From positions 62,001 to 126,000 of the forward strand of contig NGBS01001162.1 in assembly GCA_002245135.1 (NCBI GenBank): a DNA stretch of 64,000 bases, in the 5' to 3' direction. The position numbers and the translations under genes were made by a program. Below the pieces are notes generated by a model. It searched no databases. It was not told the origin of the DNA and saw only the letters and a list, made by a program, of their open reading frames with translations. The stretch comes from Proteromonas lacertae. Its lineage: Eukaryota. Position 1 is the stretch's first letter, and each line of letters begins with the position of its first letter. This document shows positions 28,101-53,800 of the stretch, piece after piece.

Positions 28101-30781
28101 CATTATATAGAAAACCTGCTGATATTTATTATGGTGAATCTAAATCTGATACAAAACCATTAGTATTTATAGTGAAATTAATCCAAGAATTTAAATTGAA
28201 ACAAGATTCTGGAGGTATTCCATCCAGTTATTCAATAAGCGATTTGTCAAGATTAAATTCATATGGAATAAAATTTGATACAAAAACTGGTCGTATATAT
28301 ACCAACTTCAATTCTGATCCTCCAAAAGTAGTACCTGATATTAGTCCATTTACTGTAACTGCTGAAAATGAAGATGGTGAAGCAACTGTAGAAGTAAACA
28401 TCGAAATTATAATTCCAAATTGTCCAGCTGAAGATGGTTATGCAGAAACAAAACCAGGTGAAACAGCTCAACTGAAATGCACAAATGGTGTAGATGCATA
28501 TGAAACAAGAAAATGTTCAAATGATGGAAAATGGGAAACACGAAATACTTATGATTGTGGTTATACAAAACCAGATAGATGTAGATATGAAACAAATAAT
28601 GATTTTATTATTGACCCATTTGCTAAAGATACTAGTGTCAATAGAATTGAAATGAAGAAGCCTACTTTAGATACTCGAGTGAATAAAATTACAATCTCTT
28701 TACCTACATGTAAAACTAATTTAGAATCAATCGGATTAGAATGGGATGAAAGTAATGGCATTGCTGTAGGTATTCCAACTGCTCAAAAACTAAAGATCCA
28801 ATGTAGAGCAACAGCTACAAATGATCAAGGATCAAAAGTTAGTAATGACTTTTATATAAGTGTGTATTATAAAGCACCAACTGTAATGACATATAATCCA
28901 AATTCATTTGTTTTCTATACAAATGTAGAGATTGTACCAGTTGAAAATGGAGAAATCACCTTAGATTCAATAGTAACAAAAGATTATGAATTAGCTAGAG
29001 CAGATCAAAGTTCGTTATTAAATAGTCGTGGAATATCTCTTGACCCAAAAACTGGATTCTTGAAAGGCACACCAAATTCTCAAACCTTAGATGAAACTGT
29101 AATATTTGTAAAAGGTGTAAATGATAAAGGTTCAGCAACAGGTAACTTTACAATTTCTATAATCTTCCCCAATTGTCCAAAAGATGGAGAATGGCCATCT
29201 ACTCCAGCCAATAAAGTAGAAATATTAAAATGTGTTGAAGGATATACAGAGAGATTTAGAAGAAGAGAATGTTTGAAAAATGGAACTTGGAGTGAAATAG
29301 ATAGTTCTGATTGTTTTGATAAAGTAGTAACAAGTTTACATTATAATCCAAGTACAATTGTATTTTATGTAGGTAATGAAGTAACAATGAACAAACCAAC
29401 ATATTATGGCAAAGTAGTGGAATTTGAAATAAGTGATGTAGAAAAGTTTGAAAATATTGGTATAAAATGGAATAAGAGTGAAGGAGTATTATATGGAACT
29501 CCAACCGCTGAATTAGAAAAATCAGACTATGAAATAAGAGCAATCAATAATGGAGGAAAATCTGAGCCATTTAAATTAACAATAACAGTAGAAAAAGAAC
29601 CAGCAAGATTATTAGTAGTAATTCCTAACACTTATATTTGGAGTAAGAATGGAAATGACTCAGTAATAACAGCAGCTCCATATGTATTAGGAAACCCGAT
29701 AGATTATTCAATTTCATCAATATCTGTAATTACTTCATGTGGTTTGAAATTTGATCAATGGAGTGGCCAAATATATGGAACTCCAACTGAAGTGTTAGTA
29801 ACACAAAGTTTCATATTAACAGCTAATAATGCAGAAGGTACAAGTCCAACTACAACAGTGACAATAACGATCAAATCAGGAGATATATTAAAATGTGAAG
29901 GATTAGATGAAAATTGGTTAGAATCAACTGGAGGTGAAATATTATACAATCCATGTAGTTTGGTAGATGAAGGGAAGAGTGGTATAATTAGTAGGAAATG
30001 TTTATCAAGTGGAATGTGGGATAGTGTAGATGAATCTCAGTGTAAGTATATAAATAAGAATAAACCGGATAAAGGTTATTTACATTTCCCTCTATCATTT
30101 ATCGTTCATGGTTTAGATGTGAAGAATGTAAAAGAAGCTGAATATAAAATATTACAGGAGAAAATATTAAATGCTTTTGGAGCTTACCGAAATAATGATG
30201 AAATGAGTGTAGAATCAATAATTCGAAAGTATAAAGATTCTAGAATATTGGTAGATGATTCTAAAGGAGTAATATTTGAATCAGTTATAAAAATGAAAGA
30301 TAATGGAAATGACACAGATGAAGCAATTTCATTCTTTAAAACAACATTTACCAGAAGTTACATTGACAAAAACATTTTAAAAAGTCAATCAAGTGAATTG
30401 CTATTAGGTTCAATTAGTAGTGAAATAGAATATGAAGAAGTACAAAGATATATTCCAAATGATGATACAGAAGAAGATTCTGAATTTAATATCTTATTAG
30501 TAATCATTCCAGTTGCTTCAGTTGTAGGTGTATTGTTGATTTGTGTGATTGTTGTATTAATCTGGAAAGCTAAAACTAGAAAGAGAGCTAGATCAACAGC
30601 AGGAAGTACAGATTATAGAACTCATTTACCTTCTGTTTCATTCAGTGAAAGTAGAACAAGAGGAATGTCAACGGCTTCTCAAATGTCAATCAATTCTGGA
30701 AGTAATAATGATAGTGGAAGAAGTAGAGGAATGTCAATAGCTAATCAAGCAAAACACACTTCAAAGAAGGTAAGAGTATAA
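16166..30781 (+). CDS. Giant type-I membrane protein (about 4860 aa): He_PIG/cadherin-like Ig repeats, PA14 domains, galactose-binding/F5-8-like domains, HormR-like Cys modules, SEA-like domain, TM, cytoplasmic tail
   Basis: 4871-codon ORF with signal peptide; probable in-frame 27-nt intron at 16203-16229. Many LPxGLxxxxxxGxISGxP repeats; PA14 cores YYVKWTGYINVPTTGTYEIRITANDGG and YFIKWYGFIKFRQSGSYYFKIES; TM ILLVIIPVASVVGVLLICVIVVLIW. Confidence 0.9.
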   Translation: MKSIAILISLVLCIFQLFIIIGFSFTLCSSVNVECSKSEIEVNVREGTRLVISCSSKITVTVGDQALCTDSDSCSISVNYPAGTYKGNYAYNAGESYGITVTVEPALECEGYGYESFTFPLNRYYYILPPKCSSSSEYLSVNLEDGSVIPDGLNLDSDGRIYGSATKAQDATSITVVVSREKANVSITISLIVKEIPTEYGMLGQTTENIMTANNTVSEFKNLYKNIMIWSKIGTFNTIYKKSDGYCNNKDDCKVNIAGVDEISHNRYTIWTSLVKFDTEIKGFYLPLDSSIKAYCAMIINDNIDDIILPSSQGVYTFEKEILHTEEYIHLSFIIYSSSIKQQLSVFYSNDGKKFIPIQENYQIYPNPVQYIGYPNNNVIIYKTIPKTITPMVNGEYNTNGWESTLPDFLKINNYGEIIYDGNGEVIFPDTQQFYTIKPKGNAIDYNLLVDFKDLKIENMGKGLVGTYYKGSVDCKYNTLSPSAALKYRKYDDMSSVFHNTESNDVWNGLTFEFYNNYYVKWTGYINVPTTGTYEIRITANDGGSIKIEDNELITETCGVSSKSKDFILKEGLHPITLEYWKSNKDYKKILNVEWKCRSCEDVEFIQIPSDNFYYLYPSKFYYQNEIASYDAIKGVFNKGLFSLTTEESKNYNSFSIYQNDGEVILSKPDISLDMVNDSPWEQFLIKAKSINPEIHPTLFTKLMIEIKENIEPKDFSYNEDVINKNIGDEIDLKASLAAGSDGAMYIVQSMNLPIGLTLDLENGNIKGRLLEIMSERKVTIRVTNPLGYLEVTLTFTVTGCKENQIFFYIKFTPTDTHLQLKIKSAKEGGEVIYENNQDQEVNKEYFHSFCHDYNSLIVDMKYSGHLHGDYGIYGENNVLYHYGYYDGLEYKESINQFDIVKDADPAIQYPDLSKYEFVVGKPIIIVPIKYNSITAIRNNNNTLLPDGLTIDMKNGVISGKPSITLTNRLYQIKPENGEKDGSIVSLTFTINKKCSLGELYTVFIHSADSKGDIMTLKLQDSSNVLYDMKGFPNNYEYEWGFCYDKEVLIINYGGSSIWDDESEIILTNIEKNDKRVYKYSIAVEEGMKSDVISSYKLVLDESTIWQKSVVYDKNWLYNMKLDENWSEVNINDTKNAIDGKPTTTYYRTSFKNVSPSTIQYLVGRITIYHGGAFYLNGNLVYKINLPDDFTQETLSEGVNTASTFYIPAFLQIANSENIFGFEFHKSNIPLALSSTLTLQPFSDNSETCTNQNLNNYRINYKQQNNIKLNDLIDGDLTTSLKFESDNIITVTNPVSIILKAAVEAHSFLSYTLSTKKYISGNCNSLIPKKWKVYGSVTQESKWIELDEVDQMMESGKTYYFNIKTKTSLVFEAIKLVITETLEKSSDEDNSCGFGVELSEINGRYCRLNQCSTGSYPPSNIGSFHQYPCPNGDGSDSVIVRCNLDGSWDDEDDSQCPKASSIRYPQSEYTFTVGLAITPIKPEINGEFINLEFEPLLPTGIKFNPSNGEISGTPIYALEDGETYTIRLVTSDNSGIQPSTQITIKITTTNCEGEGLIPKSPVGTIYRDYCENDFSGYRIKTCEMKDNKPQWSSWNENNCVEKVRPKCNIEKEYIYKIKESVSIDFGCNPAVSEATISPSLPLGLKLSNDGKLTGDAETAQNAEYSITFKTADGGFDTISFNMRVWDVLKRCYYPFTDNKMKFVLNEKVEILPPKCNTEVGSYEVSGLPTGISYNAESGLIYGKPTTKTSGTITTKAKNGNSETADAIIKYEIVEVNVDVYDNQLIGLYSKSDYISDIPNTFEPFWSLFENTEKSNTFSFEEGFSPENVFSDLNLDSSKQTFQPNIVRSNNYFIKWYGFIKFRQSGSYYFKIESEERVWLFINDMKNPVVSTTSNSVESNVYVSKATVEIGNLFYPIGVMYYHGKDKNFHLKISYSFDKTTYFPIEDSMLYHVAKPLQSLKYPQTHYLFRQSENSIEEIKPTIDSTIVSATISPSFTNGLEFDAKTGVISGSPSIGSISSDLSKYVITIESKLNSINVDVYIDVLEDKIENYEKGVNVKYYLTSNSKCDTIPSVGSPTIERIESKISHSVDIDWYDTGNSYLTNFLVEFEGSINVDVVKEGGNTFTLESYDSAIVTIDDNDIIKSLKCGENSDKIEKYELSAGIHKIQVKYWKSSSDIFRKIILKMNGEEVQIYNFLGSYMKYTVRKSEYISGKEITKFGPLFLNSGTKNQFTSFSINPPFTYSGISGLLFSSETGEISGIPVVTTSGMSKEFVITATDVSDSSKQENSISDSIRITINIVLAPSELRYDNINAGVGEKISVLPKSIINGNGVRYSITSDMKLPEGLELNPLNGEISGSTSASFSGTIEITATNDAGSTKANVIIKIEGCNILTQTNIVVRIFINSGSDIQFKFGVTPIDPIFSQDGFNLKTLYEFKNCVVYGKKTFTMTGTNIYGWYEIYNENDLLKYEEIEGSSNVESVVETNDSGIPSISYENTEITQFNSFKFKPTIINGIKIVEIKNLPKEINLNETNGIISGTMNEIMKEFLFDFVITNSKNFVTNGIIQFTFIPVDTNRNTIVKAIITTKSNGNDMIIKILKKSDERVVIEWSNLGDNNEITKTKSIQQDLYILELSSTTMSAWSEGSSVTIEMDGTTVVNNAYFEGSTTKTIPLSSDSSSFINSYTKWEYKSDNSKPPADWYKSDNTNWNKYSSGNFPKRTYITSYYKTSFYYYDNSVVFLYGDMKVDFDDGIIIYVNGNEIYRKNIIKKGVTKDTKAYYQFKKVISYSIIINPNLILNGNNIIAVELHNKDDSEKENKFKLELSATSGKANTITQITPIEKGRTTEMRYDFDKSKINYPDQFVNCKDDYLLQSLINSHDDSTWDYNNPIPMAKCEGDKVKTKGYYFTHKLFTDKAYPYKISYIFKEFTANAFDLMYYHPFSNDNKYAAAIFDIYGSTDYNDDDKTHNNDNWELLFSYNNKAIDASKGKTYFFTFSSLKSFEAYQISVKDVKDVKVNGKGWVQYDELHMRLNAQKSCVADDNHEDYPKTVAGDTVEFLCPDSKQLGSIKITCKSDGTWDDNTEVNTCFDTPSDKIYYSKDNIINFYVDFTSSVSPSSPISGIFSKDCSLPSGLSFSESNGIIYGKPTSIEGEKFTVKCNIKVSDQYPSEVTINVIQLYCESIGEYEKTKAGSKNNKGCGELYNGEKYRFCPLQLSPKFEDEVNACDPFPPLLSYSQSEYYLVKNDIVDIKPITGGLIKEWTIVDETELPNGIKFENGAFAGTATEAKALTRFSITAKNEKYENTTHISILVLNGIPKTMTIPEENAVYTNVEIKPIKAILDDESNGFLECKSDPELPSGLIINPINCGITGKITDNYLIGEKSYTLTGSIKENKVSSNSFKIKVLKGECVKEEEGKDPIHIDVGKELQEKRCSEEQKGYKAFECLADNPPKFSEEIDKCVYLYPSSFSYNKDKIDTTMYNYIELKPVLGGSSEGLTTSTVYKLKEGSLQLPKDLHFDTNTGIINGTLNEYIESERIITIEVENEIKRETSISFIIDYAYCPAIEDVVEKTKVNSEPKEVACPYPQTGNTIYTCKKENEWTIDKSGCIDPEVGTVTYSSSDLLFNVGFSDAFKPTIDGFITDIKIEDTLPNGISFNETDGSIYGTPTDAIEKQKINIYTYYKTANKTTSITITVTQLYCEEDGDWPKTKTGSSAEKECPSDKSYGQNYRRCPLTRPHPKFDDEINTCHVAYPESIEYNGNNVISATYDKDVNQQVKVNGVYPVDITFSLGEGTKLPNDLKLNLVDGSITGKLSTKLEPGTDNTKLYKICCNGDVSVCVDVKFDVRYDNCPKDDNYESTKPGEIAEIDCTNGRPNKESRKCNKYGEWEKADTSKCLYPAPEISYAKSEIKVYINEEIETNKVSVVGEGITGFVISPKDKLNGLVFNEETGVLSGKPTLPIDETFTIYCENEGGKSNEFTIKIKALYRKPADIYYGESKSDTKPLVFIVKLIQEFKLKQDSGGIPSSYSISDLSRLNSYGIKFDTKTGRIYTNFNSDPPKVVPDISPFTVTAENEDGEATVEVNIEIIIPNCPAEDGYAETKPGETAQLKCTNGVDAYETRKCSNDGKWETRNTYDCGYTKPDRCRYETNNDFIIDPFAKDTSVNRIEMKKPTLDTRVNKITISLPTCKTNLESIGLEWDESNGIAVGIPTAQKLKIQCRATATNDQGSKVSNDFYISVYYKAPTVMTYNPNSFVFYTNVEIVPVENGEITLDSIVTKDYELARADQSSLLNSRGISLDPKTGFLKGTPNSQTLDETVIFVKGVNDKGSATGNFTISIIFPNCPKDGEWPSTPANKVEILKCVEGYTERFRRRECLKNGTWSEIDSSDCFDKVVTSLHYNPSTIVFYVGNEVTMNKPTYYGKVVEFEISDVEKFENIGIKWNKSEGVLYGTPTAELEKSDYEIRAINNGGKSEPFKLTITVEKEPARLLVVIPNTYIWSKNGNDSVITAAPYVLGNPIDYSISSISVITSCGLKFDQWSGQIYGTPTEVLVTQSFILTANNAEGTSPTTTVTITIKSGDILKCEGLDENWLESTGGEILYNPCSLVDEGKSGIISRKCLSSGMWDSVDESQCKYINKNKPDKGYLHFPLSFIVHGLDVKNVKEAEYKILQEKILNAFGAYRNNDEMSVESIIRKYKDSRILVDDSKGVIFESVIKMKDNGNDTDEAISFFKTTFTRSYIDKNILKSQSSELLLGSISSEIEYEEVQRYIPNDDTEEDSEFNILLVIIPVASVVGVLLICVIVVLIWKAKTRKRARSTAGSTDYRTHLPSVSFSESRTRGMSTASQMSINSGSNNDSGRSRGMSIANQAKHTSKKVRV

Positions 30782-32837: not shown

Positions 32838-35800
32838 ATGCATTTGATTGATTTTGTTTTTATTGTAATTCTTGTTACAGTAGGAGCTGAAAGCAGTGGT
32901 GTCTACTTTAACAAGACAGTTGAGGTAGAAGTGGACTCAGGAGGTAACTACTATTTAGGTGTTAATTCGAAGAGTTACAAGATTGAAAATGCTGCCGAGT
33001 TCAAATTGGAATCTGGAATGAGTATATCAAGCTATGAGTTTGTTAAGATGAAGAGACAAGTTCACCTTTACTCTTATCAATACCTGCCAGAGTCAGAAGA
33101 GAATGAAAAACGAATGCTTGGTAGTAGTGGATGGTCCAAAAATTTAGAAGGTAAAAGAAACATCCGAGTGAAAGTGTGGCGTATAATGTGGTCCATGGCT
33201 AGTAAATATGCTGGTGAATGTATTTCCACAGAGCTGATGAGAGAGTTATTGTTCCATGTAGATTATGCTGCTAGAATCTGGTCTGGAAATCGAGTTTCCG
33301 TAGATGCAAAGAATTCTTTTATATCTGATTGTATTTATGCACTTGGTGAAACTGATTACTATTACGAGAGTGAAGCGCCTGCATTTGTTAGTATATTACA
33401 AGAAAGAGTTCCTGATTTACCCGAAACTAGAGATAATTATGCTTCTGTTATCTATATGATAGGTCGAGTTCGAGTCACTGCAGGTGGTTGGGCAGGAATG
33501 GGTATAGTGAGTAATTTTGGTACTTGGTCATCTCAAACAAATACAAAATGGACAATAGTGAATGGTTATGGTGGTTATCCAAATTGTCCTTGTTATTCAA
33601 CTGCCCTTGTTCATGAAATGCATCATAATATGGGATTTAGTCACAGTGGTAGAATAGAAGTAAGTAAAACTGGTCAATTCAATAATTTTGAATTATCCGA
33701 TGGTTATGGTGATCATGCATGTATAATGGGTGCTGGTGCTTGGTATCAACCAATTACAGCAAAACAATATTATTATAATGTAGTAGGCAAAGATCCTGAA
33801 AGCTGGTTTTGGAAGAAATTAAGTGATGTAGGTAATAATATAACTTATAGATTATATGCTTTTGATCATCCTTATTCAAGACATTATTTAGGTATTGACA
33901 AAGCTTATCATACTGATGATGAAAAAGTAGGAGAAATACCATTTAAATATCAAGGAATAGCGATAGAATTACCATTTAATAGAAGTAATATGATTAGCAC
34001 AGCAAATCAGCAATACATCTCAACAATATTAGAATATCGTTATATTGGTTCAGGTCAATATTCTTGGAAAGACAAATCTGTTCGAGTATTATGGGGACCA
34101 TCAACCAATCCAATAAAAGGAATATTAGATGATTTATTAGATGCTGATATAGATGGAATATCTGGTGGAGATAAAGGCTATGGTGATTCTCAAATCCCAT
34201 TAGGTGTAAAATGGGTTCCAAGAAATATTGATATTGGTACAATGAGTGTTTTAGTAAAGAGAATTCATTGGAGTAAAATTCAATCTAATACATATGAGAA
34301 TATAGGAAGTGAAGAGAAGAGAGAATATGATGAACCACAATATGTTGAAATTGAAATTGATTATCAACCTGATGCGAAATATACAAAACCAACAACAGCT
34401 GTTCCATTTCCAACTTATGAAAATTCCCCAACAATAACAAATTGTGTTTCAGATGAAAATGCAAAAACCATTAAATGTGAAAAATATAGTGAATCTTATT
34501 GGTTTTATTCCAAACCAGAATCAAGAAAAGATAATGTTCCTCGTGTTTATTCAAAAGAAGTAGCAACTAATGGTCGAATTGGATTTGTTTCTTATTTAGG
34601 TAAATCAGTAAATCCTCATAAACACTGTTTTGGTGAAACAATAAATCATCTATGTGTTGATATAACAACAACTAAGATAACATCGAATGATATTTCGAAT
34701 GTAAATATTTGGTCAAGTGTAAATGTTTATACGAAAGAAAAAGCATCTGATCCAGATACATCATATAAATATGTAAATCATGAAAATGTATTATATGCGA
34801 AAGTAACATTAGCAGATGGAGATAAATTAAAGATGATTGATTTATATGGAAATGAGATAAGCATAGATAGTAGTAATATAATTGGTGGCTTTTTGAATTA
34901 CAATATTCCTGATTTAAAAACTACTGGATTTAGTGAGATAATCTTATTATTAACTGATAGTAATGGTAAAGTAAAAGGTTCTGATGCATTTGATGTATAT
35001 CAATACAATAGTACTGAGAGAATAGCCTTTTATAAAGATGTTGATGATGAAAACAAGTATATATTAACCTCAGCAACAATTCCACCCAATCTTCATACAC
35101 TTCCAAGTATGATGAATAGTAAATCAATGAAAGCTAATGAAAAATTGATATATCCAATAGTGTCATTGAATAAGAATGATTATATTTATATTGATTTTGA
35201 AGGTAAGATTCCATCTGGTTTGAGTGTGAAGATAGAAACAGATAATGGTGATTATGATTTAGATTTAAGCAAGTTAGGTGGAAATAGTGATGTTTCTTAT
35301 AAATTAAGTTGTTATGAAACAAACAAAGCAACAGGTGGTATTTGTGAATATTATTCATTTACATTCAACAAAGATGTGACATTATTGAATATAAGAGCAG
35401 TAATGATGAATAAATATGGAAATAGTTTTAGTTATCGATCTAATGGAAAGAGTGAATATACTTTTGATGGTAAAAGATATAAAGTAGAAATAAATGAAAT
35501 AAAATCAACAATCTTCACTCCATTCAAAGGAACAATTGGTGGTGTAGAATATGAATTTGATAAAATAGATAGAATATATGAATTGGGAAACAATAAAATA
35601 CCAACAATTGCTCCAACTCCAAAACCTGAAGAGATAATCCCAATAATTTTACATCAAAGTGAAAGTATAAACAAGAGAATAATTGAAGGTGATAAAATAA
35701 ATTCATGTAGAGTTGAACCTGATTTACCAGCTGGAATCTCGTTATCTGATAAATGTGAATTATATGGTGTTAGTAATGGATATATGAATGAAGAAACCTA

Positions 35801-38800
35801 TCGATTATATTATAGAGAGAATGAAATATCCAAAGAAGTATTAATATCAATAATAATCTATAATGAGAATGTGGAATGTAGTTATGGTGTAGATGAAAAC
35901 ACAATTCGAATTGCTGGTAGTACAAGATTTAAAATCGAAGGTCCAAAATGTAATGGTCCAATCAAATCATTTTCAGTTGAAAATTTACCTGTGAGTATAA
36001 AATTCAATGAAAGTGATGGTTCATTATACACAATTGGTTCAAATGAAAGATTAAATCCAACAAATGTAATAGTTTATTATGAGACAGATGTGAAGAAGAA
36101 GAGTATTAGTTTGACTTTATCAATAATTGAAGAATTTGTGGAATCTTATTCTAGTCCAGTTCAACATTTAGAATATATAAGTGATTATTTGATATTAATG
36201 AGTGTAAATGATGTTTATTATATTCCAAGTTACAGTGGTAAAATAACCGAATGTAAATCATTGACCAAATTACCTGATGGAATAATGATAGATAATAATA
36301 ACTGTAAAATCAATTCAACGAAAGATGTAAGTGAAAATAAAGAAAGTATATTGTTTATTCAAGGCAAGAATCAATACAGTTCTTCAACAACAAGAGTTCG
36401 AATAGTTCAAATGAAATCTGATGAAAAGAATATGATAGAAGGTTGGATTAGTAATTATTACAAAGATAAAGTAGGTCAATGTAATGGAAGATATCGAGCT
36501 AGTAGATATGATTCTGTATTGAAATATAGTCGAATAGAAGATTCAATCAATTATGAAGAAGGTTCAATGTATTGGCCTAAATTAGGCTATAAATTAGAAC
36601 AAGAATCCTTTGTAAGTCGAAAAGGTATAATCTTCAGTAAAACGACATCTACTTGGGTATTGGGTGTAAAAGGAAGTGGTTCAACTCATTTTGGTGTTTC
36701 AAATGAAATATTAGATGGTCGAAGTTTTATTCCATCATGTGATGTAAAGAAAGCTGAAGAAAAGACTAAAACAATCAAAGAAGGTGGTCATATGTTTTTT
36801 TATGAAGAAAGTCGAGATATAACTGATAAACCATTAAGTAATGTATTTTATGTGGGTAAAAACTTTGAAGGAATTCCAGTAGGAACAATATTAGATAAGA
36901 AATATGTAAAACATTTAATAAGTAATGAAGTAGAATATAAATATTCATATGCAATCTATCCTCGTAATGTAAAGATTCCTGATAATAATCCATTGTTTTT
37001 ATATAAAGATAAGAAATATAGTTTTATTAGTGATAAAGTATTACCATCAGGATTGAAATTAGATATGAAGAGTGGAATAATAAGTGGAACTCCTCGAAGT
37101 GTAGTAGAAGTATCTGAATATAAAATCGAAGTTCGAAATACTGAAAATAATGAAGTCTTTATGATAAAAATACATATAGGTGTAGAAGAGATAAAAGAAA
37201 GTAATAAATTTGAATGTGAAGAAATTAAAGATGATATATATCTTTATTCTGATATAACAGCAATCAATTGTTCAACCGAGAATATAAATGCAATCTATTA
37301 TTCTAGTGAATTACCAAAAGGCTTAGAAATATCCGAAAATGGAATAATAAGTGGAATTGCAACTGAAGTGGTAGATAATAAGAATGTAACAATTTATCGA
37401 TATACTCCAAACAGTTTAGATAAAGCTGTAATAAACATGAAAATCAATAAAAAGATGTATAGATACTGGTTAAAACTAGTATATGTAAGTGAGAATGACT
37501 GTATGGAATATAAACTAAGTCATAATGGTAAAGAAATATTTACAAGTGGAGAATTAATAAAAGGTAAAAGATACATATATGAAAGAGGATTTGATGATAT
37601 AGATGGTACAACTGGTTATAAATTAGAAATATTAGGTTCTTACAACATAAGTGGTTCATATGAATTATCAATAAATGGATTGACAATTAGAACTGATTAT
37701 TTTGTAGAAAAAGAATCAATAGAATATTCATTTGATTTAATAGTTGATGGAAAGCCTAGAATTAGTTACAATGTATTAGTAGATCCATTCCAATGTGGTT
37801 CATATTCCTATTATGGTCCATCTTCAATCAAAAATGGTGTTTCTTATTTCAAGACTGACTATATTCCCAAAGGGTTAGAATTTAACAGTGAAACAGGTGT
37901 ATTTGATGGTTATGTAAATGAGATTTTGATAAGTAAAGAAGTAAGTATAACTGCAGTAAATCCAAGTGGAGAAAGTGAAGTAAAGATATATTTAACATCT
38001 GAATGTGAAAATAAATATCCCAATGTAACATATGAAAGTAAAACATATAGGATAGGTGAAGAAATCTATATAGAACCAGTTGAAATGACCTGTGATAAAA
38101 TTGAAAGTGATAATTTACCTGAATCATTATGGATGAATGAAATTGGTGAAATAAGAGGAGTATTATGTGAAAAAGGAGAATATTTAATAAATATAAAATG
38201 TATAGGTGAAAAAGTGAAAATGAATAATGTCAAGATAACTGTTGAAGGTGAATGTGGAAGTGGAGAAGAAATGATAAAAATTCAAGCCAAGAATTACATA
38301 GGTGATTATTTAATGAAATTGAATGTGAGTGACACAGCAGAAAAGAAGATAATGGAATTCAATCCATCAAGTGTCGAATCGAATGAAATCTATACAATGT
38401 GTAAATGTGTAGATAAAAGTAAAGAATATATATTATATGGTGAATGTAAAGTAGATTCAAATGGTTGGTATCGAATATATTATGGAGATAAAGAATTATA
38501 TAAAGTAGGAAATATGAACAAAGTGATAGAAGATCGAATTGAAATAAAGAGTGAGAAAAGTCTACCAAATATAATATATGAATATTCTGATATGTTATAT
38601 TTCAGTTTGAATTATGAAGAAGTGTTTATGCCAATAAAGATTGAAAATGGAGCAGATAAAATTGAAATAACAAATGTTGATAAATTACCTTCTTCAATAT
38701 CATTTGATTCTAAAACAGGAACATTTAGTGGAAAGCCAAGTGAAAAATTTGATGATGTTGAAATAACAATTCACTTAGAGAATAGTAAAACAAACCAAAA

Positions 38801-41800
38801 GAGTGATAAAACAGTGAAATTAAGTTCAGGTGAATGTGGTCATCATCGAATGTTATTAGATTATAATCTTAGAATAGGTGTAAATTCTAATTATGGTTTG
38901 AAAGCTGATGAATTGGGAATAGTAAGTAGTTCAATAAAGAATAAAGAAGATGTTGAAATCTACAAATATACCAAAGAAAACACGAAAGCTGATGATAATA
39001 TAAAGAGATTATGTGTATTAAAAGGATCAAGTGAAATAATATTATCTAGTTTAGATGATAATAGTACTCGATGGAATGCAAGTGAATTAATAATAAGTAC
39101 AATGAATGGAATTGAAATATTCCGAAATTACAAAGAAGGAAATATAAGTAAAGAAGTGAATGTAAACTATGAAAATTATGTAGAAAAATCTGAGATATCA
39201 TACAGTGATGTTGTTCAAAAAGATGAAAAATGGAAGAAAGATGCAAGTGGTTTTACCAAATTAGAATCATCTCCATTACCTGATTTAAAAGTTGATAAAA
39301 GATATTATGTAATAACAATAGATTTAAATGAAATGAATATGAAAGATAGTGTATTATTTGATTTGAGAATGATATTAAATGGAAAATCAATAATGTATAT
39401 GAATGGAGTTGAATTCTATGAAAGTCTATCCGAAACTGCAAGTGAGAATGATGAATATAAGATATTAGGCAATATTGAATTATTGAATATTGGATTAAAC
39501 TATTTATCAATTGAAATGACAACTAAGTCTGGAAATAAAGATAATATGAAATTGAATGGTTTTTACATAATAAGTGGAAATAATAACTGTGGATATAATC
39601 GAATCTATGATTATTCTGATTCAAATGTAGTAACACAACAAAGTGGTATTTCATATGATCAAAATGTGTATAAAATGTTTGATAATAATTACAAAACGAA
39701 ATATTCTGCTTCAGCAAAGAGTGTTGATATTTCTTATTATTATAAAGAAACCGAATCAGTGTATTTCAATGGAATAATAATCACAACTGGTTCAGATATT
39801 AATCGAGTTCCAACTTCAATAACATTGAAAGGATATGATAAATCTAATGCAACAAGTGAAATAGTTAAAGAGAGTGGTTTAAAAAATATAATAAAAGTAC
39901 CACTTCAGAGATATTCCTTTGAAAAAGATAATGATAATAATAATATGTCCTATTATGGATTTGAATTGTTAAGTGATGGAGTAAGTGGTGTAGAATATGC
40001 TGATATTTATACATTGAGTTGTAAACATCATTGTCTTGCTAATAATGAATGGCCATTAACAGCTGGTGAAACATTAGCAAAAGTGAAATGTATATCAGGA
40101 AAGACAGATCAAGAAATGTTTAGATATTGTAATTCTGATTTAGTTTGGGAAGAAATCAATGATATTCGATGTAAAGATATAAGTAATTGAATATGGTGAA
40201 TTAAATGGAGTAATAGGTGAAGAAATAATTCATTATCCAACGAAATTCAATTGTGAAAAAGTGAATCATAATTTACCCAAATCATTATCAATTGATAAGA
40301 ATGGAGTAATTCGAGGTAAATTCTATTCAAGTTATACTCAAGATATAGCATTAACCTGTGAAGTAACAGGTCAAGCAAGTGTTGATCATGTTTTAAAGAT
40401 TAATGTTCCAGATTGTAAAGCAGATGAATCAGTATTTGGATTTAGTGTGTTAGTAGAATATATCGATGATTTAGTGTCTATAAATATAACCAATGAATCA
40501 AATGAAGCAATATTGATGATAGATAGATCAAATATAACTGAGAATGAATTATTCAGAATGGGTAAATGTGTAAAATCTGGTGATTATAAAATCAATATAG
40601 TGAGTTTACATAATGAGATAGGTTGGTATAAGATCTATTATGAGAATGATATACTTTATAAATTTGGTCGAATTAACAATGATGTTCATGAAAAAGTGAC
40701 ATTGAAAAGATCAAGTGGTAAACCAATAATAAGATATGCTTATACAGATAAATTATATTTCAGTATTGATTATGAAGAAGAATTTATTCCAGTGGAAATC
40801 GAGAATGGAGCAGATGAATTTTCAATCGAAGATTCTTCTTTATTATGTAATGGAACAGAATTTGATAAAACAACAGGAACAATAAGTGGTTTATCTAGAT
40901 TAGAATGTCAATCAAGAACATTAAAAATAAGTGCAAAGAATAGTTATAGTGGAGAAAGTAATAGTCAAGAAGTAGTAGAAGAAGTTGGTAAATGTGGACA
41001 TCATAGATATCTAGTAGAATTTAACTTAGTAAGTGCAGTATTGAAAGATGCAAGCAAGAAAGTGTTATGGAGTGAATATGATCGAACTAATGCTCGAGTA
41101 TTTGATTCAAGTGCAGGATTATTATATACATTTGGTGATTTAAAAGGAGAGATAGATAGTCGAGGATATTGTACAATAGGTGGAGTTGGTAAAGTGACAT
41201 TATCGAGTTTAGATGGAAATAATTGGCAAGCCAGTGATATGACAGTAGCAGCTAGTTTTGTGGAATTAATGAGAGATTATAATCATGATGGAAATGATAT
41301 AACCTATATAGTGAATTATAATAACTATATAAATGATAGTTGTATAATCTATTATACTGATAATGAACAAACAAATGATGATTGGATTATAAGTAAAGAT
41401 ACAACTGGTTGGAGTAGTACAACCAAAAAAGTTGGAAAATTCGAAGCACTTGGTGATTCAAAGAGATATTATAAATTATTAATCGATATAAATAAAAAGA
41501 ATGCTAATATGAGAGATAGTGTATTATTTGATTTAAGAATTGAATTAAATGGTAAAAGTACAATGTATATGAATGGAATAAAATTCTTTGAGAATACTCC
41601 GAATATTGAATCTGATGCTAATGATCGAATATCTAAAATTCGAGCTCCAATCGAGTTTATGCAAATAGGACTAAATGTCTTAACAATCGAAATGGAAACT
41701 GTGAAAAGTCAAGCTGATTTAGCAAAATTTGTTGGATTATTTATAGTAGGTGGAGAAAATAAATGTGCTTATACAAAAGTAGTTCCCACCAGTGTTGATT

Positions 41801-44800
41801 TTGACAAAAATTCAGTAAAATGTAACCCAGATTGTACAATTACTGGTGATGTTAAAACTAATAGTATATATCGAGTATTTGATCAAGATGGTTTAACAGG
41901 AGTATCAAGAAAAAGTGGTTATATAAGATTGAATTTCACAGATGGTTGGTCAGTATATTTCAATGGATTTTATTATGCTTCTCACAATTCCGAAATTACT
42001 CCAACAAAAATAAGATTTAGTGGATTAGACAATGAAGGTAAATATAATGTATTAAATGATTATGAAAATCTTGAATTAGATGGTCCTTATCAACGATATG
42101 GTTATTCTGAGATAAATGATTTGCCATTAATGCCATTAAATGGATTTGAATTTGAATATTCGAGAGAAGATAATAAAGATCTTGGTATAGCTGAAATCGC
42201 TCCTTATACCTGTCGACAAAGATGTTTTGTAGATGGTGAATGGAAACCAACATTAATAAATAGCTTTTTGACACTTAAGTGTAAGAAATTTTCATCATAT
42301 GAAAAGAGAAGATATTGTAATGATGATTTTGAATGGGATGAAATTGAAGATTCTAAGTGCCCAAAAGATTCATTCTTCAAACTTGATGAATTAGAATATG
42401 AAGTTGGTAAAATAATAATAAAACCTGACATGAATTGTGATATTTTATCATTTGCTGATTTACCATCTGAATTGAGTTTTAATGAAAAGAGTGGTACAAT
42501 ATTTGGAGAAGTAAATAAACCAAATGAATATGATATAAAAGCAACATGTGATGATAAACAATTAAATTATAAACTAAAAATATTATCTTGCAAGAATGGA
42601 TATAGAAGTATATTATTAAGATTCTTAGTCAATCAACCAAAAGATATAAAAGTATTTGAATTAATAAATAGTAATAATGAAGTTGTATATAATATAAGTA
42701 ATACTGAAATGAAATCGAATGAAGAAATAAAGTATACAAACTGTTTAAAATCTGATATTTATACCTTGAATATACAGAGTAATATTGATAATAATGGATG
42801 GTATGAATTATATTATGATGTTACAGAAATGACTAAATATGGAAATATAAAAAAGAATATAGAAATAGAGTTTAATGTAAAAACAGAAAATTTAAAACCA
42901 TATATAATGTATGAATATGATATATTGAGTTTTAAAGAAGAAAGTGAATATATTCCAATTGAAATTGAAAATGGAGCAGATGTAATGACAGTAGAAGGAA
43001 CAATACCAGCTGGTATAACATTTGATGATAAAAAAGGAATAATAAGAGGAAAATTAACTACAGCTGGAATTGATACAACATTAATCATCAAAACTAAGAA
43101 TACTATAACAAAATTAGAAAATACTCAAACAATAAAATTAACATCGCAATGTGAAAGTGGTAAATCACTTTATGATTTTAATCTTAATTATAATAATATT
43201 GATAATGCTGAAGTTATAGTTACAATAAATGGAACTGAAACAAAACTGAATAGTCTCAATAAAAATGCAGATTTCTGTGTAAATGGATTAGCAAAAGTTA
43301 AGTTTAATTCGTTTGCAGCTTATAAGTTATCCGAATTTGTATTAATATCACCAGAAGGAGTTGAAATAATTAGAGATAATTTAGCTTATAGGGGTATGGA
43401 GGTTTTTGGTGTAAGTTTAAGAAATTACTTATCCTCATCAACAGTTGTATATTATACAGATACAATACAGAATAATGAAGAATGGTTGAATAATAATTAT
43501 TATAAAGAATGGAATAAAGGCTATAATCATGAGAATTTATTATCATTATCATCAACTAAGAGATATTACAATATCCCAATCAATTTAAATGGAGTTGAAG
43601 ATGAATATAAAAATATGATATTATTTGATTTAAGATTGAAAGTAAATGGTGAAATAAAGATGTATGTAAATGGAGTAAAATTCCATGAAAGTACAAAATC
43701 TTCAACAACCGAAACATTAAAAATCAGAGGTCCATCTAAATTATTTAATATGGGAGAGAATATATTATCAATCGAAATGACAGTTAAAGAAGGTAATAAA
43801 GATGAAATATTCAAATTAGATAGTTTATATTTCACGTATATGTTTAGTCAATTAAGAAATGAAGTAAATGGAGTATGTGGTTTTAGTAAGATAATTGATT
43901 TTAATGAAGATGGTGTTGAAGGAAGTGTTGAAGGAACAACTGACCATCCATTAACCAATATATTCCAAAATGATTATAGTAAATATGCCACAGTAAATAC
44001 CAATACAGGATATGTGAGTTATACATATTCATCAACAGAATATCAATATTTTACTGGAATACAATACAAAGCACCATCAGATGGTTCAAAATCTTTGACA
44101 AAATTCAAATTCTATGGAATAAATGAAGATGGTTCAACTGAAATAATAGGTGAAAAGAATGAATTAAGTTTAGTTGCATATACATCTTATTTAACATCAA
44201 ATGATGCATTACCAATCAAAACTTATCATGGATATAAATTTGAATATGAAGGAACTAATCCAATCAATGTAGGTCAAGTATTAGCAGTTACATGTAAAAC
44301 AAAATGTCCAAAATTGGGAATATGGCCTGAAACAGCACCAGGTGTAGAAATATCATTACCATGTGAAACAGATCCAACTAAATTTATGACAAGAGAATGT
44401 TCAAAAGCTGTATTTTGGTATAATGTTGATTATAAACAATGTCCAAAACCAACAGAAACACCAACAACTCCAAAGACAACAACATTACCTCCAACAACAC
44501 AAACACCAATTCCATTACCAACAGATCCTCAACCAACATGTCCAGCATTAAAGAATCCAGAACCAACAACTGCTACACCAATTGGACCAAGAGAACAAGC
44601 AAAAATTACATTGAGAGTAGCATTAAATAATGTAGAAAATATATCAACCACCAAATTAACAGAAGAAGAAATAAGAGTAATAAAATTGGCAATAATGGAT
44701 ATATATAGATTAAATGGTATAAATGTTAGAGAGATTGATATAGATGTAAAAATAAATTCCAAGAGTATGAGATTATTAGTTGATACTTCATCAAATCTTG

Positions 44801-45624
44801 AATTAGAAATCACAGTAAGAATTCTACCCGAAATTACTGAAACAAAAGGAAAAGAAGAAATTCAAAAGATTACAGATTCAATTTCAAATAAGCCAGAAGA
44901 TTTACAAAAGACAATTAAAGAGAAATCGACTGAAGTATCTGAAAGATTAACTAAGATTACAGTAGCAAAAGTAGAAAATAGCATATCAATGGAAACTGTA
45001 CCACCACCAACACCAGAACCAACAGATACTCCAACAACACCTATTCCATTAGAGATAAAGATAATTAGATTATATATCTCAAACTTATCATTACCAACAC
45101 AACCATTAATTGATTATGAGAAAAATATTATCAAACAAGCTGTTATTGATGTTTATTACTTTAATTTTGATGTAGAAATACCATTTGATAATGTAGAGAT
45201 TGAATCTCCTAAGAGGAGATTATTAGTTGATGATGTAGGAAGTATTACAATCGTAGTTATGATTTCAATACCAAAAGAGATAGATCCAGATGTATTTGAT
45301 ATAGCCACAAACAATTTAGCTAATTCTAAAGAGTCTTTATTAGACAGAATTAAATCTAGAGCTAAGAATAATAGGTTTAAAGATATTGTCTTAAATGTTA
45401 TTACTGTTGATGGAAGTGAAAAGAAGAAGAATAATAATACAGGAGTAATAGTTGGAAGTATTGTTGGTGTTCTTGTTCTTATTGGTATTATTATCTGTGG
45501 AGGAGTATTTTATTACAGATATAATCACAGAGAAAAAGATGGAAATAGATCAAGTAAAAGCAAAGTATATCCAGCAAAAGATTTCTCAGTAATATCTGAA
45601 TCTAAAGGTGATTCAACTGTTTAG
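32838..45624 (+). CDS. Giant membrane-anchored metalloprotease-adhesin (about 4250 aa): M11/gametolysin-like protease, He_PIG repeats, PA14-like, three about 700-aa super-repeats, Pro/Thr mucin-like stretches, two SEA-like domains, TM
   Basis: ORF 32838..40190 (signal peptide; HEMHHNMGFSH at 33612-33644; Met-turn YGDHACIMG) and ORF 40261..45624 (TM GVIVGSIVGVLVLIGIIICGGVFYY) are in different frames but continue one repeat architecture. They are joined by a candidate 34-nt intron (40183-40216) or a +1 frameshift. Confidence 0.8.
40183..40216 (+). other. Candidate 34-nt GT-AG intron or frame-break site joining the two halves of the giant protease gene
   Basis: GTAATTGAATATGGTGAATTAAATGGAGTAATAG. 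Its removal deletes the TGA at 40188-40190 and joins frame 32838 to frame 40261 (...DI S EEII...). Confidence 0.55.
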
Positions 45625-45748: not shown

Positions 45749-48700
45749 TTAAAAATAAACTTTTGCTTTTGAGGGATAGAATGAATGACTAGATTGAAAT
45801 TCATTGTAATTTTTTACTAAATTCTCAATTCCATCAGGATGTGGTTTTCCAACACAATACATTCTGTAATTAATGAATTTATATTCATCACTATTTTCAT
45901 CAAAATATTTCTTATAAAAATCAATCAATTCTTGTTTTGTCAATTTTTCTAACTCTTTCACTTGTTCTTTCTTTCTATCGAAATTGTAAAGTTTGCTTTT
46001 AATAGCTGCATAATGTTCATCATGTTCATTCATTAAGTTTACTATTTTCTTTGTTTTTTCAGTGATTAAACTCTCTTTGACAGTTTTAAATTCTTCATCA
46101 CTTAATTCTTCAATTAGTTTCATTGCTACTTCTTTCATATAAGTTTTAATATCAACAGTAACTTCTTCTGGAGGCTTCTTATCAGACTGTACTAAGATTC
46201 TAATACCAGTAACACCATCAGAATAATAGAAAGTAAACCAAACAACATAACCTAATTGTTTCTTTGTACGTAATTCACTGTAACAGGATTGGCTAAGAAT
46301 ATTTTCAATACATTGACACATTGCTGTTATTTTAGGAGTAAATAAATCAACCTATTTATTAATATAATATAATATATATATATATATACTAAATATAACA
46401 TAACAGTACAATAATTATTTTCATCAGGATTTTCACATAAATAATTAAACACATATTCTTCTTTCTTCTTCAACATAACATGTCTCTTTTCTACCATTAA
46501 TGATGGAAGTAATGGATTAACATCATTAAACTTATCAGATATTAATTTTTGAATAACTTTCACATTATCTTCAGTATAATTACCAATAACAAAACACTCT
46601 AAAAATGATGTTTTTAACATTGTCTTACTAAAATGTAATAAATCATCATATGTAATAGTTTGTAACAATTCTAATTTTGTTTGTACATTAGGACTTTGAT
46701 AATTTGTACTTCTCATAATAATAGTTGACATTCTTCTAAATGGCATTGATTTCAATTCACTTTCATATGATTTTAACACTTTATCTTTCATTGTATTGAA
46801 GATTTCTTCTTTTATATCAGTTATTCTCAATAAGTCCATTGCTTTTTCTAAGAGTACCACTGCTTTGTCATTAAATCCAACTACTGTGAATGATGGACCA
46901 TAGCTGTCTGTAGTCATTTCCATTCCTAAACCAGCTACTTCACAATAATAACTTTCACTGGAGAATATATGCTTTAAACATCTATTTATTAGTATAAATA
47001 TATTAGAAACAAAATATATTATTATATACTTTAGATAAATATTACATAATATAATATCTTTTGGATTGTAATAGAATAATGGTAAATGAATTGCAACATC
47101 AATAATTACTTTTGGTAATTTGTAAGTACAATCCTGTTTAAACCAAATTCTCATTCTTTCATTATTAAACATCATTTTTGGTGGTGTAAAACAATCAGTG
47201 TTCAATTCATTATGTAATGAAAAATCTTCTGGTATGAATGGATTTTTGACAGGTAAATGTAATTCAGGGTTTGATTCTGGTTTGTCACATTTTTTTAACA
47301 ATTCATTATCTATTGATTTAATATAATACTGACCTTTATTAATCGGTTCAACTTTAAAATCTTCTATTTTTAAACCCAATCTTTCATATTCTTGAGTTGT
47401 TAAATTGATAAATACATTATTTGTATTGAAATTCTTTCCCATCTCAATAATCTTTTTTTCATCATACTTTTCAGGTATATGTCCATAAGTTAACAGTTGA
47501 TCAGATGGTGCATGAAACATTTTGTTTGACAAACCATAAGCATAACTATTAAAAGTAATTAAATATATAAATATTTACCTTGGATTATTTGAGATAGATT
47601 TATATTTAAATGTAGTTGCATTCATTTTCGTATTCTCTTCCCAAATCCACTGTTCAACGTTCTTCTTAGCTAATTCGATGTATTGAAACACAATATAAAC
47701 AATTTCATCAATATGATTTAATCCTTCTTCACTCAAATCGATTGTAATATCAAAAGTTGACCATTTTACATAGTTATGATTAATTCCAGCATATAATCCT
47801 AATGACCAACACTTCTTTCTTAATAAATGCAATATTGAACCTTCACTTTCGTGACCAATCAAATGACTGTAATATCTATGAGCTAATACGTCATTATCAC
47901 TGTTTTTAACACTCGGAAATGGAAATGATATTGATAATTGTCTGGTTGCTTTTACTGGGATGTAAATTAATGTTTTCTTCAATAAATTATCAAAAATATC
48001 ACCATCACCTTCAACTCTTTCAATATTCTTGTTCTCTATTTTATTGAAATATTGTTGAACATATTCTTCTATCTTATCTATTGGATCTTTGCCTATTACA
48101 GCCAATTTCATTATGTTTGCAGAATAATATTCATTGTAATGTTTAATAACTTCATCTCTAATATCAATATTATGATCTTGAGGGTATTTTAGTAATGTAT
48201 CTAAGTTACCACATGAGAAGTGAGAAAATGGAGAGGATTGCTTTAATAAGGAACGAAATATCTCATGTCTTCGAAATGCATCACTTTGATTGTTTTTCTC
48301 ATATTCTGAATTAACTACCTATAATAATAATAATGCAATAAAATTAATTGAATACATTGATTTCACGATTTAAACACTCTGGATTGAATAATGGACAGAT
48401 GAAATAACTGCTAAATTGCTCTAATCCTTCTTTTAAGAAAGGTGTATTAACATTAAAGTAATAGACAGTTTCTTCAGCACTAGTGTATGCATTACTATAA
48501 CCTCCATGTTCATCTAAGAATTTAGAGAAGCTGTTTTCTTCTGGATAGTCTTTTGTTCCTAGAAACAGCATATGTTCTAATAAGTGACTTACTCCCGGAA
48601 TATTATCTGGATCACTGTTGCTTCCATTACCAACACTCATTGCTGCAGTTGCCATATCACAATCTGGATGACTGATCATCAGTACTTTCAATTGATTTTT

Positions 48701-48824
48701 CAGAGTAATAGTCTTATAAGATCTACTGTCACTTGCAGACTTTTCAATTCCATTTTCCTAGTTGCAATATATATTCTTTTTATACTATTTTTATGTAAGA
48801 AGATCTATCAAATGATGTAGACAT
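45749..48824 (-). CDS. IDE: Insulin-degrading enzyme (insulysin, peptidase M16A)
   Basis: ATG at 48824. Inverted zincin GVSHLLEHMLFLGTKDYPEEN, SNAYTS, HLIGHESEGS, ELRTKKQLGYVV; several short introns including an in-frame one at 46982-47029. Confidence 0.95.
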
Positions 48825-50831: not shown

Positions 50832-53800
50832 TTAGAATATTTTGCCAAATGAAGATTTTCTTCCATTGTCACTTCTAGAATTAGCTGATCCTGTTCTTCC
50901 CAAAGCTATAGATGAAGAAGCTCTTCTTGATCTTTGAGATAATAGGAAATTATTTTGGAATGAATATTCACCTGCTTCAGATCTACCTAATTGTGGGAAT
51001 AATTTAGCTGGAATAAATCTAACCAACTGATATACAACCCATGTAAAAGCACCAGCAATTATACATATACCATGATACGTACCATCTAAAGATTTCACAC
51101 TTAATGCTTTCCCTCCTACTTCAACTATTAAAAACTGTAAGCCTGTAGTTACAATAATAACACCTATGAATATTTTATTACTCCAAACATTGCCGAATAT
51201 ATTCCATTCACTATTAATCTTTCTACAATTCACTTCATTGAATAATTGCATCAACGTAAACATATGAAATACAACCGTTAAATGAACGGATGGATCAGAT
51301 CCTGGACCTAATTTTGTACCAATAGGAACACCTAAAATATCTTGTCCTCTGAATACAATAAACATAATAACTACTAATTGATATACTATTTGTGATATTA
51401 TATTTCTCATAATTGTGGGAGAAATGATTGATTCAGTTTTACTATTCGGTTTTCTTAATAATAATGTTTCAGTTGGCATTTCAGTTCCTAAAGCTGTACC
51501 AGCCATTGTATCCATAATTATATTAAACCATAATATCTGAACAGCTGTTAATGGTGATTCTTTAATCACACATGCAGATATAAATGTTAAACCTAATGCA
51601 GAATATGCAGCTGATAATTGGAATGATAAAAATCTTCTAATATTTTCATATACATTTCTACCCCATCTAACAGCAGCTACAATGGATGCAAAATTATCAT
51701 CCATTAGAATAATATCACAAGCTTCTTTTGCTATGGTAGTACCACTTATACCCATTGCAAAACCAACGTTTGATTTAGCTAAAGCAGGACCATCATTTGT
51801 ACCATCACCTGTTACTGCTACAACTTGTCCTCTTTCCATTAAACCACTTACTAATAAATGTTTATCGGTTGGAGCTGATCGAGCCATAACTTGAAGATTA
51901 TGTAAATAATTATCAAATATATATTGATTCTTTATGACATAATATTTCTGTTCAGCGGCTTTATTGTTTCTTTCTTTTTCAGACATCTGATATCTACATC
52001 CTCTTTGTTTACATTCTTCAGTACATTTCGTTTTACCTCCTCTTTTATTAATGGCCTCTTCACTCCAACTACAACAATATAAATCATCTTTATGTCCAAC
52101 TATTGATGGATAATCGTAGTGTGTAGGATATTTGGCAGTTCTATAACCTGATTTATAAGCAGGATCACTGGATAAGTCTTTACAATGACACTCATGATCG
52201 AAATGTGGTGGTAAAACAAATCCTCCAACTTGTTCTCTAAATACTGTACCAGTAACACATATTCCATTTCCATTGTATATATTACACTGTTTAGCAATAC
52301 ATTTAGCTGTATCTAATGAATCGCCAGTTACCATTCTTACAGCTATTCCTGCTTTTTGACATTTTAATACACATTCTGGTACTTCTGGTCTTATTGGATC
52401 TTGTACTCCAATCAAACAGATTAATGTTAAGTCTTCTTCTACTTTTGGACAATAACCTACTCCCTTTTGATCTGTAGATTTATATTCAATCATTTCTTTC
52501 CAATCATTTACTTCATTTTCATCATCATAGTCTTTATAACCCATTGCAATAACTCTTAAACCTGTTTTTGACATTGGTTTTATACATTTATTCATTACCA
52601 TAAACCTAGTACCACTACCATCAGCTGTACCATCACTATTTTCATAGAAATTTCCATCTAATTCCTTCATTTCCATATCCTTAGTAATTATTCTATTGGA
52701 TAATCTTAATAACATATCTGGAGCACCTTTTACATATACTCTATATTTACCATTTGGTAATCTGATTACTATAGATGATCTTTTACGATTTGAATGGAAT
52801 GGGAAACAACTAATAATTCCTGTGCTTGTTTGATCAACTTTATTATCTAATAACGGGAACTTCTCTCTAACAGTTTTATAATCAATTCCTAAATCTTTAC
52901 AGAAATTCAATAATGCAATATCTAATGAACTACCAATTCCTCTTTCTTTACCATCTTCTTTTATATCAATAAATGCATCATTATTGAGTATACTATCTTC
53001 TATAAATAATTCACGTAAACCATTTGGTAATTCCTTTATTGCTTTAATGAAGTTATCTCTTTCTTCTTTTGATAAGGATTCATATTTATTCATATATTTG
53101 GTTTGGTCTTTTTCTTTAGTATCTAGAATCCAACTCTGCATTACAGTCATTTGTCCTTTTGTTAATGTCCCTGTCTTATCACTACAGATTGTAGTAGCAC
53201 CACCCATTGTTTCACAAGCATTTAAATGTCTCACTAAATTATGATCAGTCATCATTCTTTTTACTGAGTAAGCTAATGCAATAGATACAGCTAATGGTAA
53301 ACCTTCTGGTATAGCTACCACCAATACAGCTATACCAGCAATTACAAAGTTAATTAATGAAGTCCAATTAGACATTGTCCATTCAGGATCACCATTTTCA
53401 TCAATAGTACCATCACCATTTGCATATTCAACTATATGAGTAATGAACATAATAATGACGGTTAAACCAGCAGCAATACCACCTAATATTGATAGTTGAC
53501 CTGCTAATGTATCTAATTTCATTTGTAATGGTGTTTGATCTGTATGATCATTAGTGATTAAATCTTTCATTTTACCATATACACTGTTATGACCAACAGC
53601 TACAACTATACAAGTCATTTTACCGTCAAAACATTCCGAGCTTGACACTATAAATGGATGTTCATGATCTTTCTTTAATTGCTCACTTTCTCCTGTTAAT
53701 TTTGATTCGTCCATTTTGATATTATCACCTGAAACATATAATGCATCTACTGGTACATTATTTCCACCTGTTATTATCATTATATCACCAACTACAATGT

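Follow-up and report, generated by a model that had tools for sequence, protein, structure and literature searches.

Large surface proteins with immunoglobulin (Ig)-like or cadherin-like repeats are known from Blastocystis, in which 26 genes of the He_PIG entry IPR008009, some of them cadherin-like, were reported from subtype ST7 and proposed to encode adhesins (Denoeud 2011, PMC3129679), a role that is only a guess. An InterPro table lists the modules of such proteins as expanded in both Blastocystis and Proteromonas, with per-proteome counts of 31 to 123 for cadherin-like, 12 to 107 for HRM superfamily, and 32 to 138 for galactose-binding-like domains (PMC10690189). Work on Blastocystis proteases has centred on cysteine proteases (PMC5608401), and the sections of these sources used here describe no protease head on the Ig-repeat proteins. 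Among bacteria, the Akkermansia O-glycopeptidase Amuc_1438 combines a metzincin with a beta sandwich and a carbohydrate-binding module (CBM) (PMC9513282), the Akkermansia mucinase OgpA, likewise an O-glycopeptidase, is annotated as peptidase family M11 by NCBI (PMC7518263), and Pseudomonas Mep72 is a secreted metzincin that is processed off two CBMs (PMC4334185). Here we describe an interrupted gene of 12.8 kb on the (+) strand of a 64,000-nucleotide (nt) stretch of the Proteromonas lacertae genome (positions 62,001 to 126,000 of contig NGBS01001162.1, hereafter the window), in which a stalk with Ig-like and PA14-, HRM-, and galactose-binding-like modules, as in the Blastocystis proteins, follows an N-terminal domain that resembles M11 peptidases.

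Our preferred interpretation, to which we give a little less than an even chance, is that one gene encodes a tethered, convertase-activated zinc protease on a glycan-held stalk that would cut host mucus glycoproteins. The stalk belongs to a known, expanded surface family of Blastocystis and Proteromonas, and the new part is the M11-like head on such a stalk in this lineage, the combination of M11 domains and Ig stalks being common in bacteria.

The first open reading frame (ORF1) was found to contain EKRMLG at amino acids (aa) 90 to 95, HEMHHNMGFSHSG at aa 259 to 271, and YGDHACIMG at aa 290 to 298, so that the prodomain end, the metzincin site, and the Met-turn named in a preliminary description of the locus are all present. 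The zinc motif HExxHxxGxxH, with its catalytic Glu, lies at aa 259 to 269, as in metzincins (clan MA(M)), and downstream of the third His, M297 aligns with the near-invariant Met of the family. The prodomain region had no match in Pfam and has no Cys before aa 128; therefore, there is no cysteine switch of the matrix metalloproteinase type.

The relationship of this domain to M11 was evaluated with profiles. Scanning prokaryote genomes for the motif yielded 102 loci, and 16 of the 24 that were scanned against Pfam passed the M11 model, half of these (8/16) carrying Ig-type Big or cadherin domains. A profile of the motif-selected prokaryotic domains gave 39.6 bits for ORF1 aa 199 to 345 and one from 150 further family members gave 22.9 bits, scores that are partly circular because the prokaryotic domains were selected by motif. 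The region upstream of the selecting motif scored on its own, however, with only 2 of 1000 shuffles higher, and in a MAFFT alignment the downstream YlEYR and LLD motifs of an ancillary domain were matched to those of M11-like proteins. Therefore, the M11 signature HN.G..HS...YGD..MG is accompanied by homology to M11-positive proteins beyond the motif, significant in the upstream part. A profile search with the bacterial family alignment matched 24,846 clusters, which represent the core of the bacterial family and not the nearest kin of the window protein. A scan of metagenomes for the motif variant without Gly gave 21 loci, and 4 of the 6 scanned passed M11, three with a similar Met-turn. The domain also matched the NCBIfam model of Mep72 with an E value of 1.8e-4, far below the 645-bit cut-off of that family, and the top neighbour clusters in the ESM Atlas, at 0.96, were M11, M12B, and M6.

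Because the Pfam M11 score lies below the cut-off, yet the domain aligns with prokaryotic and metagenomic proteins that pass M11, we call it a divergent M11-like domain. On the sequence and model evidence, it is an intact, divergent M11-like metzincin, and not M11 proper or a demonstrated gametolysin; the gametolysin-like label of the preliminary description holds for the nearest sequence kin, which are M11-like, and fails at the Pfam threshold. The window protein shares with the prokaryotic family the HExxHNxGxxHS...YGD..MG pattern, the upstream Y..GW.G.G segment, a prodomain, and an ancillary beta domain, and prokaryotic members often have Big, cadherin, PKD, or NEW3 tails. It differs in its sub-threshold score, in an identity of at most 24%, in its eukaryotic type I membrane anchor, and in its length of about 4250 aa compared to 376 to 2389 aa among the 150 matches listed. 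Other fusions of prokaryotic M11-like domains were seen with a subtilase (L062:2-5140, (-) strand) and with a C-terminal Hint domain (L020:3761-7933, (-) strand).

An AlphaFold2 model built on a 63-row alignment (pTM 0.72, pLDDT 64) predicts a metzincin fold with an ancillary beta domain. Its best fold matches were all metzincins, among them ADAM17 (Z 13.9, root-mean-square deviation 3.3 over 185 residues) and InhA2, a Bacillus InhA protein of family M6 that aligns with both lobes (325 residues, Z 12.4), and the top 37 rows were all entries of zinc metallopeptidase fold. Therefore, the membership of the head in the metzincins that had been proposed is backed by the motif and by a predicted fold with Z of 12 to 14, whereas its M11 part stays below cut-off. 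Amuc_1438 (Z 10.4) and OgpA (Z 10.2) stood at VIA ranks 18 and 19; like the window protein, these are gut metzincins with a beta domain and, in Amuc_1438, a CBM, but they are soluble bacterial enzymes of 11 to 12% identity that were not among the top 60 sequence matches in the PDB. Mep72, in which a secreted metzincin is combined with CBMs and is released from its tail by processing, resembles the window protein, and neither it nor InhA has a stalk or transmembrane (TM) helix of the kind found here.

The preliminary description had left the algal or bacterial origin of the protease to a phylogeny. In a tree of 38 rows, which held no named algal gametolysin, no supported set contained the window row, and the window protease was at most 24% identical to any row. 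The GC content at fourfold-degenerate sites was 19/153 in the protease, similar to the 7 to 11% of the rest, with no sign of recent transfer (one mis-framed M16 row was dropped).

The stalk was evaluated with Pfam, profiles built from the window, and PDB profiles. He_PIG repeats scored above the Pfam cut-off in both reading frames, and together with a probable signal peptide and a C-terminal TM helix, they place the protein in the Blastocystis surface family; the stalk is also homologous to both neighbouring stalk genes in the window. The window-built profile found 12 Ig-like units, 8 in ORF1 and 4 in the second frame, and three super-repeats of about 700 to 730 aa were 30 to 32% identical (E 1e-62 to 1e-89). 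These repeats and the single strong TM helix agree with the preliminary description, as does the signal peptide, seen as a weak hydrophobic stretch at the N terminus. The PA14-like domain stood in part: aa 1197 to 1320 match a PA14 domain in the neighbouring gene, itself verified with Pfam, with 26% identity (E 3e-5), but this segment has no match of its own to PF07691. The profile of the CBM32-type repeats matched a module of the GH92 mannosidase 7nsn in the PDB (E 1.6e-4), and the HRM-like label rests on weak Pfam matches (E 0.004 and 0.021) in 2 of 3 copies. With the jelly-roll, betaA/B, and SEA-like repeats, no credible match was obtained in PDB profile searches. Two of the features proposed earlier need correction: the mucin-like P/T stretches are only two short linkers of 49 and 18 aa, and the SEA-like domains matched no Pfam or PDB profile and are visible only as an RLLV...GSxxxV pattern, with GSITIVV in one repeat. 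One unit of the super-repeat we take to be jelly-roll-like from its motif pattern. Besides its Ig-like units, the stalk is likely to hold glycan-binding modules.

The single ORF of about 4250 aa that had been claimed is in fact two frames, ORF1 at 32838-40190 (2450 aa) and a second frame at 40183-45624. The stop codon of ORF1 is 40188-40190, and the second frame, shifted by one base, is already open from 40183, preceding the stop by 8 nt; the length of about 4250 aa is therefore a model. It was found that including the 12 residues after the break raised the score of a leave-one-out Ig profile from 25.2 to 29.4 bits (+4.2, equalled in 7 of 500 shuffles), and that super-repeats 1 to 3 keep their register from one frame to the other. 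In the second frame, the first ATG lies 112 codons from the start, in the middle of a domain. Because of the fit of the post-break residues to the Ig profile and the position of this ATG, we conclude, on sequence grounds, that both frames are derived from one ancestral gene, and they are likely to be one gene today. That they are two genes transcribed separately, as an ORF listing that places them 70 nt apart would suggest, is very improbable, given that the two frames overlap, that Ig sequence is encoded in the gap, and that the second frame has no signal peptide, in addition to the position of its first ATG.

We judge the break to be due to an assembly error, a real indel, or a young intron, with the assembly error slightly ahead of the other two, which we rate equally. 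The third possibility comes from a 34-nt GT..AG stretch at 40183-40216, the removal of which would join both frames, and which agrees in length and ends with the local introns (28 to 48 nt, median 36). If the break is genuine, ORF1, which has no TM helix, could be a secreted 2450-aa protease-lectin, either as the sole product or as one of two forms (secreted and anchored) produced by retention or splicing of the young intron. The ORF1 stop lies 3 codons past the end of a complete first HRM module, at a repeat boundary, as such a form would have it, and frame-restoring intron-like sites are uncommon, at 137 (loosely) or 23 (strictly) of 1807 coding 15-nt stretches. However, the 34-nt stretch also encodes the first strands of an Ig unit, which splicing would remove, and its AG is part of a conserved I/V-G codon pair of the repeats, so that a chance occurrence is likelier than the genome-wide rate implies. 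Overall, we consider a genuine break of this kind unlikely. An ordinary old intron at this position was excluded, because the stretch still encodes Ig strands and its 26% GC is too high compared to 5 to 21% in 17 other introns, 15 of which had been picked with a low-GC filter. A bolder version, which we regard as improbable, is that InterPro has missed what would be the first metzincin of the Blastocystis/Proteromonas lineage to cut mucin from a surface tether, and that the 34-nt intron, born from Ig coding sequence, acts as a switch by which either a secreted form of 2450 aa, closing at a module boundary, or a 4250-aa form anchored in the membrane would be made.

The gene might also have been broken recently and be decaying, or its product might be an adhesin of metzincin fold with no catalytic activity, which would account for the frame break, for the long branch (2.05) of the protease in the tree, and for the residue at position 4 of HExxH, which is His here and Gly in 136 of 137 bacterial rows. 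However, the three His, the Glu, and the Met are all intact, 1813 codons downstream of the break are free of stops in a genome of 27% GC, and some proteins that pass Pfam M11 have a residue other than Gly at that position; we therefore doubt that the gene is decaying or idle and rate this as a minor alternative.

A model for the tethered form assumes that the break either arose in assembly or is a young intron that is spliced out. A type I membrane protein of about 4250 aa would carry the divergent M11-like zinc metzincin at the tip of its stalk. The signal peptide would direct secretion, convertase cleavage at KR|ML would activate the protease, and about 30 stalk domains could carry the enzyme roughly 100 nm outwards, through the surface coat. 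Through the PA14- and CBM32-like modules, cell and enzyme may be kept attached to glycans, in the way that CBMs anchor bacterial mucinases, and the protein might be shed at the membrane-proximal RLL loops. The target would most likely be densely glycosylated host mucus proteins, a reading based on Amuc_1438 as the top Foldseek row (E 3.8e-3) and on the M11 annotation of OgpA. A mucinase activity is plausible as a prediction. The surface-tethered protease-adhesin that had been proposed thus survives as a metzincin on an Ig- and lectin-like stalk with a TM helix, and not as an uninterrupted 4250-aa product.

Several observations weigh against this interpretation. The excised domain scored 12.9 bits (E=0.056) with Pfam M11 (PF05548), for which the gathering threshold is 21 bits, a score level with reprolysin models (Reprolysin_3), and whole ORF1 had no M11 match in Pfam. 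A profile of the downstream part only gave no signal in two tests. The AlphaFold2 model, with its pLDDT of 64, was built on a bacterial alignment at 15 to 22% identity, and a fold predicted from the single sequence was unreliable (pLDDT 32). The Foldseek top rows were tied, with none reaching E 0.001, and VIA places Amuc_1438 and OgpA below ADAM17 and venom metalloproteinases; therefore, the fold does not point to mucin. Word-based searches (in set length ranges), phmmer against the PDB, tblastn against plasmids, and related-locus searches of genomes and metagenomes revealed no relative of the protease domain and thus no orthologue, and genome samples gave only weak, mostly motif-level matches (E > 0.002), in 1 of 301 genomes of the Verrucomicrobiota group and 6 of 401 of the Bacteroidota group. 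In the stalk, the jelly-roll unit has no PDB or Pfam match. At the break there is no long homopolymer, and the other long ORFs of the window are unbroken; for these reasons, an error of assembly cannot simply be assumed. Finally, gametolysin, the best-studied M11 enzyme, digests the alga's own wall (PMC8643629).

This last point also supports a different substrate for the same tethered enzyme, namely the fibrillar coat on the surface of the protist itself or its cyst wall, which the enzyme would remodel or shed in the way that Chlamydomonas gametolysin lyses a wall rich in Pro/Hyp. The free-living relative Cafeteria has two M11 genes in the InterPro table (PMC10690189), so the function may predate gut life, and the protease-less sister stalk proteins, with similar RIL or RRRAL membrane-proximal loops, could be substrates. 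On the other hand, the tip of a very long stalk would seem better suited to distant substrates than to a membrane-proximal coat, and the window protein is no closer to algal-type rows than to bacterial rows. We regard the protist's own coat as a less likely target, and host mucus as the preferred one. The same table gives zero M11 proteins for Proteromonas and for 8 of 8 Blastocystis strains, but it would not register a domain as divergent as this one. The MEROPS table for Blastocystis ST1, ST4, and ST7 also has no M11 row (PMC5608401). The coordinates of the features are given in Table 1.

Table 1. Features of the interrupted protease-stalk gene, in window positions.
Feature	Positions	Strand	Basis
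Probable signal peptide, aa 1 to ~18	32838..32891	+	hydrophobic window 1.9 at aa 6, no dedicated predictor
Putative prodomain ending KR|ML, aa 19-93	32892..33116	+	motif at aa 90-95; convertase cleavage presumed
Metzincin catalytic domain, M11-like, aa ~100-330	33135..33827	+	profiles, predicted fold
Zinc-binding motif HExxHxxGxxH(SG): H259, E260, H263, H269	33612..33650	+	sequence
Met-turn YGDHACIMG (M297)	33705..33731	+	spacing inside family range
Putative ancillary beta domain against protease, as in M11-like/M6, aa ~331-512	33828..34373	+	MAFFT YlEYR..LLD motifs; model vs InhA2 over 325 residues; downstream-only profile negative
Unassigned region, probably 2-3 beta domains, aa 520-926	34395..35615	+	only PPC, E=0.11
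Three He_PIG/cadherin-like Ig units	35616..36410	+	window-built profile
PA14-like domain	36426..36797	+	E 3e-5 to neighbour's PA14
Ig, Ig, unnamed beta unit, Ig	36921..38000	+	Pfam and window-built profile
Super-repeat 1: Ig-betaA-Ig-betaB-jelly-roll-like-CBM32/discoidin-like-HRM-like Cys module	38016..40178	+	profiles
Frame break: ORF1 stop and 34-nt GT..AG stretch	40183..40216	+	sequence
Super-repeat 2	40183..42366	+	repeat comparison
Super-repeat 3	42367..44448	+	repeat comparison
P/T linker 1, 31/49 residues P or T	44443..44589	+	composition
Membrane-proximal alpha/beta repeat 1 with RLLVD, SEA-like by pattern only	44596..44991	+	no profile support
P/T linker 2, 14/18 residues P or T	44995..45048	+	composition
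Membrane-proximal repeat 2 with RRLLVD..GSITIVV	45049..45414	+	pattern
Single transmembrane helix	45439..45516	+	hydropathy 2.93
35-aa cytoplasmic tail and TAG stop	45517..45624	+	sequence

The window contains two further stalk genes, neither with HExxH in its visible parts. Directly upstream on the same strand, 16166-30781 (+) is an intronless paralogue encoding a 4871-aa type I stalk protein with 21 Ig-like units, two PA14 domains, HRM modules, a signal peptide, and a TM helix. At 60210-63890 (-), and probably running past the window end, lies a third stalk protein of Ig and HRM units, represented by its C-terminal part, with a TM helix and an RRRRAL loop. In all three giants, an alpha/beta domain near the membrane bears a basic loop, R-(L/I)-L or RRRAL (44596-45414, 30074-30448, and near 60950 (-)), echoing the KRML of the prodomain. 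Judged by this pattern, the basic loops are possibly a shared convertase signal for shedding.

The GC content of the window is 22 to 35% per kb, compared to published values of 21 to 23% in isolates from tortoises and 27% in Proteromonas (PMC10690189 Table 1), and the stops are canonical. The genes are eukaryotic (VPS9, WD40, M16, P-type ATPase, and ankyrin), with short AT-rich GT-AG introns, and none of six window proteins had an exact match in the protein collection. Convergent with the protease-stalk gene is a gene for an insulinase-type M16 peptidase with five short introns (45749-48816, (-) strand). It is followed at 50832-54190 (-) by a P-type ATPase of the Blastocystis ATP4-like group, the best named matches of which are from Blastocystis; the identity to any listed relative is only 52 to 55%, which suggests that the lineage is poorly represented in the protein collection. 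In a quick tree with 32 rows, made up of the window protein and 31 of 120 listed matches, it fell on a long branch in a clade of 100 support with Blastocystis, outside the main orthologue group. By this ATPase, the host, a gut protist, would be a deep lineage of Blastocystis or closely related to it. An 824-aa ORF at 54750-57224 (-), T-rich on the coding strand, had no credible Pfam match.

In open-access literature searched for Blastocystis together with gametolysin or metzincin, no paper was found, and no description of the combination in this lineage was met with. The architecture, which the preliminary description did not recognise as characterised, is new in this lineage in its combination, but not in its stalk, which belongs to a known family, or in its design, which is common in prokaryotes. 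The impact of the finding is limited by the familiarity of a protease on an Ig stalk, by the lack of an orthologue, and by the interruption of the gene in the assembly. The predicted enzyme head indicates that the Ig-repeat surface family can display catalytic tips, and its expressible domain of about 420 aa is a candidate for a part in the passage of the protist through mucus or in the shedding of its coat. Because the domain escapes Pfam and InterPro, other Blastocystis proteomes may contain such heads that have gone unrecognised, which can be tested with the profile from this analysis.

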